Below, piece after piece: positions 29,833 through 64,000 of a stretch of DNA of 64,000 nt. Position 1 is the stretch's first letter, and the number at the start of each line of letters is the position of its first letter. Where the stretch lies: positions 101,928-165,927 of the forward strand of contig DJHE01000019.1 of NCBI GenBank assembly GCA_002432945.1, in the 5' to 3' direction. The notes under the pieces were generated by a model, which saw only the letters and a program-made list of their open reading frames with translations, searched no databases and was not told the DNA's origin. The stretch is from Synergistaceae bacterium UBA5827 (GTDB lineage: Bacteria; Synergistota; Synergistia; Synergistales; 79-D21). The translations under genes were made by a program, and so were the position numbers.

Positions 29833-31794
29833 CTAGACAAATAGCGGGGCGATGACGACCGCCACGACGGACATGAGCTTGATCAGGATATTCATGCTGG
29901 GACCGGCTGTATCCTTGAATGGATCGCCGACCGTATCTCCAACGACGGCGGCAGCATGGGCCGGAGTCCGCTTGCCTCCATGGTGTCCCTCTTCGATGTA
30001 TTTCTTCGCGTTATCCCAGGCACCGCCTGCATTGGCCATGAAGATGGCGAGCATGACGCCCGTCACGATCGAGCCGCCTAGAAGCCCGCCAAGAGCCGCA
30101 GGACCAAGGAGGATGCCAACCAGCACCGGGGCGACGACGGCCATGAGCCCTGGAACGACCATCTCGCGGAGGGCAGCAGCGGTGGATATATCCACGCAGC
30201 GCTCATACTCGGGACGGCCGGTGCCTTCCATGATGCCCGGGATTTCGCGGAACTGGCGCCGGACTTCGTCGATCATTTTCTGGGCAGCGCGACCAACGGC
30301 TCCGATCGCAAGGGCACCGAAAATAAAGGGAAGCAATCCTCCGATGAAGAGCCCGACCATGACCTTCGGGTCACGCAGGTCAATCACGTCGATATGAGCT
30401 GCCTGGGCATAGGCGACGAAAAGCGCCAGGGCTGTCAGGGCGGCAGAACCGATAGCCAGCCCCTTGCCCACGGCTGCAGTTGTATTGCCAACAGCATCCA
30501 ACTTGTCGGTGATCTGCCGGATTTCATGGGGCATGTGGCTCATCTCGGCAATGCCCCCCGCGTTGTCGGCTATCGGGCCATAGGCATCAACGCTCAGGAC
30601 CATGCCCGTGATGGCAAGCATCCCGACAGCGGAGCAGGCAATCCCGTACAGCCCGCCAAAGCGGACTCCGACCAGGGTCGCAGCGCAGATGAGAAGGACT
30701 GGAACAGCCGTGGATTTCATTCCGATTCCAAGTCCCGAAAGGATGTTTGTCGCAGGTCCTGTCAGCGAGGCTTCGGCTATTTCCTTGACCGACTTATAGC
30801 TGGAAGAGGTGTAAACCTCTGTGGCGAAACCGATCGCAACACCTGCAACCGTACCTGCAACCACGGCATAGAAAAGGGTCAGTTCGCCGAAAATTGCCCG
30901 GGTCAGGAAGAACGTGCCCACGATCAGGAATGCGCCGGTCGCATAGGTTCCTCGGCTAAGAGCGGCCTGAGGATCCCCGTTAGGCCCGACCTTGACGAAA
31001 AAGGTTCCCAGGATGGAAGAAAGGATGCCAAGCGCTGCAAGGAGGAGAGGATAAACCATCCCCGCATTTCCGAAGGTAACGATCCCGATCGCCATACAGG
31101 CAACAATGGCGTTGACGTAGGATTCGAAAAGGTCCGCTCCCATTCCGGCGATATCGCCGACGTTGTCTCCCACGTTATCGGCAATGACGGCAGGGTTTCT
31201 CGGGTCATCCTCGGGAATGCCCGCCTCTACCTTGCCGACCAGGTCCGCACCGACATCAGCCGCCTTGGTGTAGATACCGCCGCCCACACGGGCAAAGAGG
31301 GCAATGGAGCTGGCACCGAAACCGAAACCGACGACAATGTTCGGGTCCTTGAAGAGAAGGGTGCAGAAAAGGATGCCTAGAATACCGATGCCGACGACGT
31401 TCATGCCCATGACCGAGCCGCCGGTGAAGGCCACCGTCAACGCCTCGTTCATGCCCTTCGTGGCGCTGAAGGCAGTTTTTCCGTTGGCCTTCGTGGCAAC
31501 GTTCATGCCAAAATAGCCCGTCATCGCGCTGCAGAACGCGCCGAGGACAAAGCAAATTGCCGTGCCCGCGCCTATCTTCCAGAAGAGCAGTCCGCCCACA
31601 ACCACGACGAAAGGCATTAGGGCCTTGTATTCCCTGTAGAGGAAAGCCAACGCCCCTCCGTGGATGATGGTGGAGAGCTCGTTGATCCTTTCGTTTTCCA
31701 CCTTGACGGCGCCGATCTTGCCCGTGGCCCAGATCGCGTAGGCCAAGGCAAGAACCCCTGACAGCGCCACCATAAGAATGACTTGTGTTCCCAT
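29833..31794 (-). CDS. hppA: membrane-bound ion-translocating pyrophosphatase
   Basis: ORF 29833..31914. Start refined to ATG 31794 (MGTQVILMV..., RBS AAAGGAGG 8 nt upstream). About 16 TM segments, with GDNVGD and DNAGGIAEM motifs. Confidence 0.95.
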
Positions 31795-31885
31795 CGATGA
31801 AACCTCCTTTGGACTATGAATATTCATTTGGCGTAACAACTTGCCCGCCCCAGCAGGGCGGGCATTGGCATGAAAAGCGCCCATT

Positions 31886-31914
31886 ATTATAGACATCTCG
31901 TGCATCCAGCACAA
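31886..31914 (-). promoter_or_regulatory. sigma-70-type promoter candidate for hppA
   Basis: Minus strand reads TTGTGC (31914-31909), 17 nt, then TATAAT (31891-31886). The predicted leader contains an 8-bp GC hairpin (31843-31863). Confidence 0.5.
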
Positions 31915-31958
31915 GGGACCCGGACAGAATCGGGGACCTCAAGTGAAAACCCGGGCGG

Positions 31959-32600
31959 TCACCGCTCTGGGATATCCCGCCTCCGGATATGAATGTAAAC
32001 ATCCCGCCCCTCGGTATCCTTGAGGGATCGAAGCATCCCCTGGATGGATTCCTGTAGGAATTTTGCCAGGTAGGGCTTGAGAAAAACATTCCTGCCGTCG
32101 ACATGGAGGCTTATGGAAGGGAAAACCTTGCCCCGGACCAGGCGTTCGGCGAGAAGGCTGGCCAGTTGATCCTCTTCTCCCGGGCCAAAAGAGGGCGTCT
32201 TGTCGGTTCTTCCCTCCCGGCTGTACCAGGCAAATATCCCGCCGACGCCTTTCGGGCAGTCTTCGGGGGGGCCTACCCAGATGCGGGGCAACGGCAAATC
32301 CTTTCCGCCTTCCAGGAGGACCAAGTCAACATCCGGCATGAGACGTTCGACCAGCCATTCCAGTTCGGGCTGGACCTCCTGGGCCTCCTTGCGGACCCCA
32401 TCGGGTCCCCAAAGGATGGTCGGGATCCCTTGTCCAAGGAAAAAGCCGGTGTCGGTTCCCCCCTTGCCCAAGATGGCTTCGTGCGTCCGCTTGACGAAAC
32501 CCACCCGGATTCCCATGCCCTCCAGCCGGGAAGCCAGGTCAAGGCAAAGTGTGGTCTTGCCGGAATTCTTGAAACCGCTTACGGCAACAAAGGCTTTCAT
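31959..32600 (-). CDS. MobB-like P-loop protein with C-terminal extension
   Basis: ORF 31959..32645. Start refined to ATG 32600 (MKAFVAVSGFKNSGKTTL Walker A), overlapping the upstream stop as ATGA. The last 60 aa or so extend beyond a typical MobB. Confidence 0.6.
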   Translation of the reverse strand: MKAFVAVSGFKNSGKTTLCLDLASRLEGMGIRVGFVKRTHEAILGKGGTDTGFFLGQGIPTILWGPDGVRKEAQEVQPELEWLVERLMPDVDLVLLEGGKDLPLPRIWVGPPEDCPKGVGGIFAWYSREGRTDKTPSFGPGEEDQLASLLAERLVRGKVFPSISLHVDGRNVFLKPYLAKFLQESIQGMLRSLKDTEGRDVYIHIRRRDIPER

Positions 32601-33790
32601 GAAGCTGATGTCCCGGTGGAGCCCGCCTGGCGAAGGTTGAGCCAAATCCGGCGGTAGGCATCAAGGCAGAAGAAGAAAAGGGTCATGACAAGCGGACCCA
32701 GGAAAATCCCCAGGAAACCCAGGGTCGCAAGGCCGCCCACAACCCCGATGAAAACGATGAGGATGTGAACCTTGCTCCCCTCGGAAATAAAGACCGGCCT
32801 CAGGAAATTGTCCACGGTACTGACGATGGCTAGTCCCCAGAATGTCAAGGTCAGCGCCGCCCCGTGCTGTCCCGTGGAGAGAAGGTAAAGGGCACCCGGA
32901 ACCCAGACCAGGGCCGTCCCTACAAAGGGAATGATCGCGAAAATGAACATCAGGGCACCGAATAGGAAAGCGTTCGGGAGCCCCACCCACCACCAGCCCA
33001 GGGCACCGAGGAATCCCTGTACGGCAGCCGTGAAGGTAAAACCGTAAACGACCGCCTGGAGCATCCTTCTCCCACGCGAGAGCATCGCGTCGGTTTCCTC
33101 CGCGGAAAGGGGGACGATATCCCGGATATACTCAACGATGACATGCCCGTCACGGATCATGAAGAAGGAAGCAACGGTAATGACGATCATCTGAAAGACC
33201 AGCTTGAGGGCACTTTCGAAAACGCCCTTGGAAACGCTTGCGATCCACCCCGAAAACCATCTTCCAAGTTGCCCTATGAGATCGTTCACAAGGTTGACCT
33301 GGGAGATCCAGGGTTTCAGGAATTCCTGGAGCGACTGGGGAATTAGTCCGAAAAGAAAGGATATATCCTGTTTTTCCAGTTTTTCCACGATGTCCGTCAG
33401 CCGACCATAAAGGGCCATGCCGTCGTGAGCCAGGTAAAACACGAAGAGGATGGCCGGGAGAAGCAGCATTGCGATGATAACGGCCGTTGTCAGGGCAGCT
33501 GCGATATTCGCGAAACGCCGGCGGAAAAGCCGCACGTGGAGAAGCTGGAAAAGAGGGTAGCTGAAAAAGGAGAGGATAATCGACCAAGCCAGCGGGCGTA
33601 GCAGGGGGAAGGCCAGCAGGAGGGCAATCGTCGAAAGCGCCGCGAAAAAGACGACGAACGGGACGAAGGTTCCTCTTGGCCGATTCCTGGCCACTTCAGG
33701 ACTACTCGCCTCCACCACGATGGAGACCTCCTTCCGAGATAAGGGCCGCTGAAATCCCGGCTCCCAGGCCATTATCGATATTGACGGCAA
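32597..33790 (-). CDS. AI-2E family transporter (PerM/UPF0118)
   Basis: 397-aa polytopic membrane ORF with a family-typical C-terminal glycine-rich TM region. The annotated start overlaps the larB 3' end by 89 nt, so the true start is uncertain. Confidence 0.75.
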   Translation of the reverse strand: MPSISIMAWEPGFQRPLSRKEVSIVVEASSPEVARNRPRGTFVPFVVFFAALSTIALLLAFPLLRPLAWSIILSFFSYPLFQLLHVRLFRRRFANIAAALTTAVIIAMLLLPAILFVFYLAHDGMALYGRLTDIVEKLEKQDISFLFGLIPQSLQEFLKPWISQVNLVNDLIGQLGRWFSGWIASVSKGVFESALKLVFQMIVITVASFFMIRDGHVIVEYIRDIVPLSAEETDAMLSRGRRMLQAVVYGFTFTAAVQGFLGALGWWWVGLPNAFLFGALMFIFAIIPFVGTALVWVPGALYLLSTGQHGAALTLTFWGLAIVSTVDNFLRPVFISEGSKVHILIVFIGVVGGLATLGFLGIFLGPLVMTLFFFCLDAYRRIWLNLRQAGSTGTSAS

Positions 33791-42540: not shown

Positions 42541-42581
42541 CACAGGACCTCCTGCAGTCCAACGTGAAAGGGGAGATCCCC

Positions 42582-43043
42582 GTGGGGGAAATCCGCACAA
42601 CAGTCTGGTGCCTGGGAAACCCGCTTCGGGGAGATGACGGGGCTGCCGTTCGTTGCGGGGAAATGCTGCTTGAAGCCCCGGAAACTCATCTCGAGGTCGT
42701 CCTGTGCGAGGCGGTACCGGAAAACTTTGCGGCACCGCTCCGCAGGACTCCCCCCGAAAGGCTTGTCATCCTCGACGCCTGCCTCATGGGAACTGAACCC
42801 GGAACGATCCGGATGCTGGACTTCGAATGCCTGGACGGCCTTACAGAAACAACCCACGGATTGCCCCTGGGGGGAATCCTGAAGGATATCCTTCCTCGGG
42901 AGAAAGTCTTTGTCATCGGCATCGAACCCGGGAACACCGATTTTTCGCTCGCCCTCAGCCCCAAGGTCGAAGCCGCCGTTCAACTCCTGGCCTGCGCCCT
43001 CAGGGACGGGTCCTGGATCCGCATCCCGGGAGCCCCCTTATAG
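42582..43043 (+). CDS. hydrogenase maturation endopeptidase (HybD/HycI/FrhD family, peptidase A31)
   Basis: ORF 42564..43043 (GTG). The internal GTG at 42582 has RBS AAAGGGGAG 6 nt upstream. GNPLRGDDG motif, then Asp in VILDAC and His in THGLPL (the metal-ligand triad of the family). Only plus-strand gene in 50 kb. Confidence 0.75.
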   Translation: MGEIRTTVWCLGNPLRGDDGAAVRCGEMLLEAPETHLEVVLCEAVPENFAAPLRRTPPERLVILDACLMGTEPGTIRMLDFECLDGLTETTHGLPLGGILKDILPREKVFVIGIEPGNTDFSLALSPKVEAAVQLLACALRDGSWIRIPGAPL

Positions 43044-62332: not shown

Positions 62333-62974
62333 CTAAAGACGCCCTGCGGCTATCCTGCGAAGGATGATCCATGCTTCCGCTGATAGACCCCAAAGCGGCA
62401 TTTCGCCGCAATAATCCGCGGGATCTCCAAAACCCGCGAGGAAGCCGTTCACCCGGGCCGCTGTCGTGGAATCGACAAAGGACCGCTCTTCAGGGAAGAG
62501 TTCCCTGAAGGCCTTCATCAGGACGGGATCGCGACGCAACCGGTATTTCTGGTGGTAGTCTTCGGCCCGTGTGAAACCCGTGAAGGGAAGCACTTTCGTA
62601 ATCAAAGGACGGTCGACTGCGGAGGCAAGCCGTTTTCGGCTTTCCTCCGCTTCCCTTTCCTGGACCGGTGAATGGACGAAGATTAACGAAGCGTATTGGC
62701 GGGACCAAGCGGGCCGTGTCGGGTCATGGGATTCCCAGAAAAGATCCAGAAGCCGGCTGTAAGGGACGACTGCCGGGTCAAAGTCGACCTGGACAGACTC
62801 CGAATGATCTCCAATGTCATGGTAGGTCGGATTCGGGTAGGCGCCCCCCGCGTAGCCGACGCACGTGCGGAATACCCCATCGAGGCTCCCGAACCGGGAG
62901 TCCGGGCCCCAGAATCAGCCAAGGGCAAAGGTGGCGGTCTCAAGAAACCTGTCAGTTTCGCTTTTGTTTGTCAT
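62333..62974 (-). CDS. msrA: peptide-methionine (S)-S-oxide reductase MsrA with in-frame UGA (predicted selenocysteine) at the catalytic position, codon 20 (62917-62915)
   Basis: Own translation from ATG 62974 (RBS AAGGAGG): [46 protein letters not shown]...FWESHDPT...AEDYHQKY..., stop at 62333. It is a single frame of 214 codons. The TGA replaces the Cys of the GCFWG motif. The ORF track shows only the last 90 aa. Confidence 0.75.
62882..62904 (-). promoter_or_regulatory. candidate bacterial SECIS hairpin downstream of the msrA UGA
   Basis: mRNA reads UGA-UUCUGGGGCCCGGA-CUCCCG-GUU-CGGGAG-CCUC. It has a 6-bp perfect GC-rich apical stem (62900-62886) with a G-first loop starting 21 nt after the UGA, extendable by G-C and G-U pairs across one A.C mismatch. 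Confidence 0.5.
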
Positions 62975-64000
62975 GCCCCCTCCCCTCCTTCCGCTGAAGA
63001 ACTTTCTTCCTTCCAGGGCCTCCCTGGTGAACTCCCGCGGGGCGCACAAGGCAGTTCGGGCCCAGGCCGACCAAGTCCGGGCGACCCGCCTTGTAAAGGG
63101 CTTCCCTGACGAGATCCGCGTTCTTCGGGTCACGATACTGCAAGAGTGCCCTCTGGAGCCTTTTTTCATGCGCGGTTTTCGCCACGTACACCTTCTCGCC
63201 GGTTAGCGGATGAATCCCTGTGTAATACATGCAGGTTGAGAGCGTCCCTGGAGTAGGAATGAAATCCTGGACCTGCTCCGGATGCGTGCCGGTGTCCCGT
63301 AAAAACTCCGCCAGCTCGACGGCTTCCCTGAGACCTGCCCCGGGGTGGCTCGACATGAAATAGGGAACCAGGTACTGCTCTTTCCCAAGCTTGCGGTTTG
63401 CCCTCCCGTAAGCTTCCACGAACTGGAGGTAGGCACTCTTCCCGCTTTTTCCCATGAGATCGGTCACCTTCTGCGAAACATGCTCTGGAGCAACTTTCAG
63501 CTGGCCGCTGACATGGTGCTCGCAAAGCTCTGAAAGGAAGGGTTCAACCCCTCCCTCCAGCAGGTAGTCGTAGCGTATTCCCGAGCGAACAAAGACCTTC
63601 TTGATCCCGGGCAATCCCCGGATAGCCCTCAGGAGATCGAGGTATTCGGAATGATCGGTGTCGAGTTTCGGGCATGGGCTGCACCCCAGGCAATCGCGAC
63701 CTCGGCAGGTACCGCGTTCGAGCTGGTCGGCACAGGAGGGATGGCGGAAGTTTGCCGTCGGACCCCCGACATCATGAATGTACCCCTTGAAGTTGGGCAT
63801 CTTTGCCAGGAGGGTCGCTTCGTTCAGCAGGGACTCCTTGCTCCGGGATTGGATGATCCTCCCCTGGTGCGAAGAAATCGCGCAGAAGCTGCATGCCCCG
63901 AAACAGCCACGGTGGCTGACCAGGCTGAACTGGACCTCCTGGATGGCGGGAACGCCTCCTTCGGGTTCGTAATCCGGATGGAAAGTGCGGGCATAAGGCA
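62952..64000 (-). CDS. YgiQ-family radical SAM protein (UPF0313), C-terminal part; the 5' end lies beyond the window
   Basis: ORF 62952..63800 continues stop-free to the window edge in my translation: ...[63 protein letters not shown], which contains the CxxxCxxC motif. Its 3' end overlaps the msrA start by 23 nt. Confidence 0.85.

Follow-up and report, generated by a model that had tools for sequence, protein, structure and literature searches.

A predicted selenocysteine-containing methionine sulfoxide reductase A, interrupted by an in-frame TGA, in an uncultured Synergistales bacterium

Background

Does an msrA reading frame with a TGA at the codon for the catalytic residue represent a broken gene, or does it encode a selenoprotein that gene callers do not recognise? 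The question is raised by a locus in the 64-kb stretch of DNA analysed here (64,000 nucleotides, in the following the window), for which an earlier note, made from the sequence alone, had suggested a functional gene for a selenocysteine (Sec)-containing methionine sulfoxide reductase and a host that decodes UGA as Sec. In bacteria the signal for Sec insertion, SECIS, is as in Escherichia coli fdhF a hairpin that directly follows the UGA within the coding region, and SelB binds to its apical loop.

The MsrA of Clostridium (Alkaliphilus) oremlandii OhILAs (CoMsrA) natively contains Sec, is of the 1-Cys type, has an activity approximately 20-fold above that of its Cys form and accepts glutaredoxin (Grx), and not thioredoxin, as reductant (PMC4479559). 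The same study describes a helical domain (residues 145-209) that is not present in other MsrA structures, and it employed the E55A and E55D variants in a substrate-induced dimerisation assay. Moreover, MsrA with the motif GUFWG/H is given as an experimentally verified bacterial selenoprotein in a 2026 review (PMC13188914). With CoMsrA characterised and the GUFWG/H type verified, the family is thus already known, and the msrA gene of the window is a new, so far unannotated member of this biochemically characterised selenoprotein family.

The msrA reading frame and its product

The msrA gene is located at 62333..62974 on the minus strand and comprises 213 codons plus the stop. Its frame opens with an ATG at 62974-62972, which is preceded, with a 9-nt spacer, by the Shine-Dalgarno sequence AAGGAGG (62990-62984, minus strand); 19 codons then lead to the TGA at 62917-62915, and 193 sense codons follow before the TAG at 62335-62333. 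The start codon, ribosome binding site, TGA, 193-codon frame and stop are all present where the earlier note had placed them. The ORF list, in turn, has only a 90-aa tail with a TTG start at this locus (62333..62605), and so there is no in-frame ATG, GTG or TTG between the TGA and 62605, as had also been noted.

Codon 20 (62917-62915, minus strand), the UGA that is predicted to be recoded and to specify the catalytic residue, gives the motif G-U-F-W-G if read as Sec, and G-TGA-F-W-G matches the GUFWG/H pattern of the review cited above. It corresponds to Sec16 of CoMsrA and aligns with the engineered Cys16 in the chains of PDB entries 7C13 and 4U66, which are Sec-to-Cys crystal forms. With Cys put at the TGA, the product matches Pfam PF01625 with E = 2e-39 (135.6 bits; cut-off 23.7). 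This match and the Cys16 alignment agree with the earlier proposal that the TGA occupies the place of the catalytic Cys in G-C-F-W-G. The PMSR catalytic domain covers residues 13-146 (62537..62938, minus strand) and includes the GDHSES motif with Glu59, the counterpart of CoMsrA Glu55 in the alignment. It is followed, at residues about 149-213 (62336..62530, minus strand), by the C-terminal helical domain that is specific to the selenoprotein-type MsrA clade; it is recognised from the CoMsrA alignment, which extends gap-free through this domain over CoMsrA residues 145-193 (end at 189-193). For PF20939, 'Selenoprotein MsrA helical domain', the window protein is sub-threshold (E = 0.3) and homologues from the clade pass.

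The best matches among solved structures, with E = 4e-48, are the CoMsrA entries 7C13, 4U66, 4LWJ, 4LWK, 4LWL, 4LWM and 4W8C, and the BLASTP alignment to CoMsrA is gapless with 42% identity over 189 residues. Classical MsrAs are far behind at about 1e-29 (E. coli MsrA, 1FF3, E = 4e-29). The window protein and CoMsrA have in common the PMSR domain together with the C-terminal helical domain, a Sec in G-U-F-W-G close to a short N-terminus, and the conserved Glu of GDHSES. They differ in that CoMsrA comes from a clostridial host whereas the host here is a Gram-negative-type Synergistales, in that CoMsrA has zero Cys residues whereas C38 and C189 are present in the window strain, and in that Grx is the reductant in C. 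oremlandii whereas the window enzyme is known from its sequence alone.

The classical Cys-type MsrA, e.g. the 3-Cys enzyme of E. coli (1FF3), shares with the window protein the PMSR fold, a GCFWG-type active site and presumably also the methionine-S-sulfoxide chemistry, but its nucleophile is Cys, its C-terminal resolving Cys residues are recycled by thioredoxin, and it is without the helical domain and without a SECIS. In an uncultured Pseudomonadota MAG (locus L008, ~4098) and in Syntrophobacter sp. SbD1 (L069, ~4925) a GGCFWC msrA is present 1-2 kb from the Sec-type gene; the two types are therefore distinct paralogues. The MsrA of Chlamydomonas reinhardtii likewise has Sec in place of the catalytic Cys (reviews, including PMC13188914), but it is eukaryotic, with the SECIS in the 3' UTR and another decoding machinery.

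The catalytic codon among related loci

The search for homologues covered one genome per species, with a query limited to the 193 residues 3' of the TGA, and the nearest 80 loci were kept. Since the query lies wholly downstream of the TGA, the search is without bias toward any catalytic codon. These 80 msrA loci show 45-57% identity, and the catalytic codon is TGA in 77 of them and a Cys codon (TGT or TGC) in the other three. Specifically, 74 TGA, two TGT and one TGC were parsed directly, and three loci that the pattern had missed have TGA as well (within G-U-F-W-H or G-U-F-W-T). In the TGA loci the codon is surrounded by a context of 14 protein letters. They span at least 12 bacterial phyla, the sources being Nitrospirota, Chloroflexota, Desulfobacterota, Syntrophales, Planctomycetota, Bacillota, Synergistota, Spirochaetota, Acidobacteriota, Actinomycetota, Pseudomonadota, Calditrichota and others. 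Of the earlier statement that Sec-type MsrA is known from a few anaerobic bacteria, the existence of such forms stands and their rarity does not, the clade being predominantly Sec-encoding across many phyla.

The three loci with a Cys codon come from a Thermococci archaeon (L064), a Thermoplasmatota archaeon (L074) and a member of the Dehalococcoidia (L004), and the first two are the archaeal members among the nearest 80 loci. This distribution would fit a switch between Sec and Cys that follows the decoding system of the host.

A SECIS-type hairpin downstream of the UGA

A SECIS-type hairpin is located at 62902-62884 on the minus strand, with the 5' arm G62902-C62896, the loop GGUUC at 62895-62891 and the 3' arm G62890-C62884. 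It starts 12-14 nt after the UGA, and its core stem, 14 nt after the UGA, consists of the 5 bp CUCCC/GGGAG; the core can be extended by G62895-C62891 and is followed outwards by an A.C mismatch and then a G-C pair. The folding free energy is -12.4 kcal/mol in the window as compared to -0.6 to -7.3 kcal/mol in the three Cys-codon loci (L004, L064 and L074), which are without the hairpin and have different pairings.

Covariation was analysed in a gap-free alignment of 75 UGA-containing sequences for a 7-pair stem. The fraction of paired stem cells is 83.8%, versus 25.7-57.1% with the partner slid one to three columns, and at two stem pairs both partners have changed in a compensatory manner, in 16 and 17 sequences (C-G, U-A and A-U in one; U-A and G-C in the other). 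None of 500 shuffles reached the observed covariation score or paired fraction, and the RNAalifold consensus independently identified the identical stem. Of the five pairs in the core, the inner three are C-G throughout, with the synonymous sites frozen; as they never vary, they provide no covariation information.

The constraint is also seen at the codon level: across the hairpin the codons CGG, UUC, GGG and xCC are almost fixed, where the Ser/Ala codons always end in C, Arg is CGG in 51 of 51 cases and Gly is GGG in 73 of 75. The third-position entropy is 0-0.5 bits at codons +6 to +9 and ~1.9 bits at the control Gly codons +3, +13 and +20. Since the stem is itself translated, its pairing also couples two amino acids: residue 26 (Ser/Ala) changes in concert with residue 30, where Ser, Gln, His, Arg, Ile and others occur. 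Rfam gave no match in the whole window at the gathering threshold, nor in 62700-63050 at E <= 10. The single-sequence fold z-scores are unremarkable (+0.9 for 76 nt and -1.0 for 27 nt), so that it is the comparison between sequences that provides the evidence for the hairpin.

With its position, its size and its G/A-G-U-U-C/U apical loop, the hairpin fits a candidate bacterial SECIS. We take it to resemble the paradigm of the E. coli fdhF element, and its placement in the ORF, 12-14 nt past the UGA, with a small G-U apical loop (GGUUC or AGUUY) presumably agrees with the bSECISearch criteria. Like the fdhF element it is situated inside the ORF and directly 3' of the UGA, but its stem is shorter (5-7 bp), its sequence is another and there is no evident bulged U; binding of SelB is putative.

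Strain variants, syntenic orthologues and selection

In three independent assemblies (L085-L087; ENA ERZ2931041, JGI 3300035433 and JGI 3300028916) the msrA locus shows no difference (100% identity), and the nucleotide identity is 98.8% in two Logan assemblies and 96.3% in JGI 3300033630. The strains L088-L090 and the syntenic orthologues L092-L094 have all kept the TGA and an intact frame. Two features of relatives had been singled out in the earlier note as informative, namely whether they carry TGA or TGC/TGT at this codon, and whether additional frame disruptions point to decay. Each strain variant and each syntenic orthologue examined has TGA, as do the 77 of 80 loci above, and further disruptions were found in none of the relatives examined. 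The proteins from L092, L093 and L094 are 70-87% identical in amino acid sequence to the window protein, and their genes have retained the short N-terminus, the start codon and a purine-rich GGAGG-type site; such sites are at the equivalent place in L089, L092 and L093.

In the 96% variant (L089) 15 of the 24 differing codons are synonymous, and four of the synonymous changes (F10, L11, E12 and A17) fall within the 19 codons before the TGA, which means that this N-terminal segment evolves as translated sequence. The 19 codons thus appear, judging from these substitutions, to be under purifying selection. Between the window strain and L088 there are seven nonsynonymous and six synonymous differences, and dN/dS is only moderately low.

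The Cys residues of the window MsrA are C38 and C189. Codon 38 (62861-62863) is TGC in the window strain, as in the identical assemblies L085-L087, and Arg (in RTRVGYAGG) in L088-L090, L093 and nearly the whole family; C189 is missing from the database homologues P0002, P0003 and P0007. As C38 and C189 are not kept among orthologues, the clade is without a conserved resolving Cys, although either residue may have a role in this strain. The R38C change is strain-specific, is located 18 residues past the Sec, and may be neutral, damaging or a new resolving thiol.

Annotation of the family in databases

That gene callers truncate genes of this kind, as stated in the earlier note, is borne out by the gene tables of L085-L087, which have either no call at the locus or just the 90 aa. 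The closest database proteins (P0001-P0007) are 66-89% identical to the window protein, are all 138-182 aa long and start after the TGA, which is the expected signature of truncated gene calls. The predicted starts differ between the truncated homologues (LRTRV, VIRTRV, MVRTRV and LDLFW). The next protein, P0008 (L097, 1097-1099; metagenome contig JAAUYF010038963.1), has a Trp in place of the Sec in its database entry (GWFWG). Its DNA has TGA and then the identical hairpin, and the deposited Trp is therefore an annotation artefact; evidently UGA was taken as a Trp codon when the contig was translated.

A probable Sec-encoding gene and the alternatives

The conservation of the TGA, the covarying hairpin, the constraint on the N-terminal codons and CoMsrA as the closest structure support the reading in the earlier note of a functional Sec-MsrA gene, and we regard it as very probable that the locus is a functional msrA encoding a CoMsrA-type selenoprotein. 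The UGA at codon 20 would then be recoded as Sec in translation. The hairpin (CUCCC-GGUUC-GGGAG) would act as a bacterial SECIS, with SelB-GTP carrying Sec-tRNA(Sec) binding to the apical loop, and at the UGA the stalled ribosome would receive Sec from SelB. The predicted product of 213 aa, with the PMSR and the C-terminal helical domain, would reduce methionine-S-sulfoxide: the selenolate of Sec20 is expected to attack the sulfoxide, whereby Met would be released and a selenenic acid left. As the clade has no conserved resolving Cys, regeneration of the enzyme would presumably depend on an external thiol reductase, which for CoMsrA is Grx. Moreover, from the comparative evidence and the lineage of the host we infer that the host decodes UGA as Sec and has selA, selB, selC and selD.

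The only rival with non-negligible weight, although an improbable one, is that of a relic, i.e. a gene that is of the Sec type by descent in a host that recently lost its Sec machinery, such that translation now ends at the UGA without yielding an active enzyme. The moderately low dN/dS between strains could be taken to speak for a relic, and so could the outcome of the search for the Sec machinery: selA, selB, selC and selD were not found in ~81 kb, comprising the 64-kb window, ~7 kb past its right end and 10 kb past its left end. ARAGORN predicted no tRNA, and hence no selC, in the whole window, and Pfam analysis of the ~50 window ORFs, as well as the ~7-kb right and 10-kb left flanks, gave no other selenoprotein families. 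However, the TGA, the hairpin and the frame are maintained in orthologues of the Synergistales lineage down to 70% amino acid identity, most changes in L089 are synonymous, and the Synergistetes/Synergistota have been described as rich in selenoproteins (PMC9312934).

We give very little credence to the possibility that msrA is a pseudogene, derived from a Cys-type gene through a nonsense mutation of TGC/TGT to TGA. Gene callers do treat msrA as broken, and the window strain has the unusual R38C, but a random nonsense mutation predicts neither a TGA in 77 of 80 loci from many phyla and in every strain and orthologue examined, without further frame disruptions, nor synonymous changes upstream of the TGA, nor an adjacent hairpin that covaries.

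Just as improbable is that the UGA is a real stop and that translation begins further downstream, e.g. at the TTG at 62605 or at an unconventional start, to give a shorter protein. The 138-182-aa homologue calls that begin after the TGA would fit such a protein, but these products are without the catalytic residue and the first beta-strand, the predicted starts are inconsistent between orthologues, and the stretch from the TGA to the downstream pseudo-starts is the most conserved part of the family.

Least likely of all is an alternative code with UGA as Trp or Gly genome-wide (translation table 4 or 25), as the deposited Trp of P0008 might suggest: that Trp is an artefact, the catalytic nucleophile position needs Cys or Sec, and TGA is both the commonest stop codon of the 46 Pfam-supported window genes (TGA 26, TAG 12, TAA 8) and internal in frame in msrA only, which excludes a genome-wide reassignment.

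With msrA read as a selenoprotein gene, the public assemblies lack it or give a hypothetical protein of 90 aa in its place, and close homologues are deposited as fragments without the catalytic residue. With the 213-aa selenoprotein restored, an enzyme for the repair of methionine sulfoxide would join the inferred physiology of an uncultured Synergistales member of methanogenic hydrocarbon-degrading consortia, and the organism would be recognised as one that uses selenium. For recovery of the family from metagenomes, the UFWGPD context together with the conserved hairpin provides a simple signature. Current understanding of selenoproteins is left unchanged, and the main value of the finding is the correction of annotation.

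The UGA members share an almost invariant SECIS core, CCC-GGUUC-GGG. It is conceivable, though we are rather doubtful, that the whole CoMsrA-type clade is Sec-encoding by default, with a single origin and wide horizontal spread of the gene together with its SECIS. If this were the case, mis-annotation would be systematic, with P0001-P0007 all truncated and the next protein carrying Trp at the Sec position.

Genomic context and host

Upstream of msrA, the 3' part of a ygiQ-family radical SAM gene (DUF3362, Pfam PF11842) is present at 62952..64000 on the minus strand and runs off the window; in L085 and L087 the gene is full length with 630 aa (Radical_SAM_N and DUF3362). The ORF of 282 aa listed at 62952-63800 begins at the first start codon within the window, which is not the true start of the ygiQ gene. 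The ygiQ stop overlaps the msrA start by 23 nt (62952-62974), and the two genes are thus probably co-transcribed. In L092-L094 the gene order is the ygiQ-type radical SAM gene, msrA and then, convergently, ykuD and livFG (liv transporter), and this conserved ygiQ-msrA pairing in Synergistales orthologues also suggests co-transcription. To our knowledge there is no known functional link between the ygiQ-family gene and msrA.

According to Pfam analysis of the ~50 ORFs, the window is an ordinary chromosomal region with housekeeping genes only. Among these are genes for SMC, RNase G, RodA, MinCDE, PBP2, MreBCD, RelA, RecJ, SecDF, Rex, RpoD and DnaG, and further for a proton-pumping pyrophosphatase, GuaA, GroES/EL, TsaD, Hsp33, MurJ, AspRS, HisRS, MalQ, a Liv-type ABC transporter and YkuD. 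A mechanical scan of the window for ORFs interrupted by a single TGA gave 153 candidates. One of these (128 + 701 aa, 29833-32325) was rejected as a selenoprotein, being the proton-pumping pyrophosphatase (PF03030) preceded by non-coding-looking sequence. A HycI-type hydrogenase maturation protease is encoded at 42564-43043 on the plus strand (gene calls on identical contigs), between the opposite-strand lptB-like and murJ genes, and MobB at 31959-32645. The two hint at hydrogenase/molybdoenzyme metabolism, with no such enzyme gene within the window itself.

For the GroEL of the window, identity is 95-96% with proteins labelled Synergistaceae or Synergistales bacterium and 83-84% with the homologues from Thermanaerovibrio, Aminomonas and Thermovirga, and the host is therefore an uncultured member of the Synergistales. 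Comparison of synteny with the 80 named loci gave no placement. The assemblies GCA_029216075 and GCA_032941855 are whole metagenomes rather than genome bins. One contig that carries the window genes occurs in the metagenome of the methanogenic benzene-degrading consortium DGG-1A, and a related organism is present in a dichloromethane-degrading culture, the habitat of the host being strictly anaerobic methanogenic consortia.
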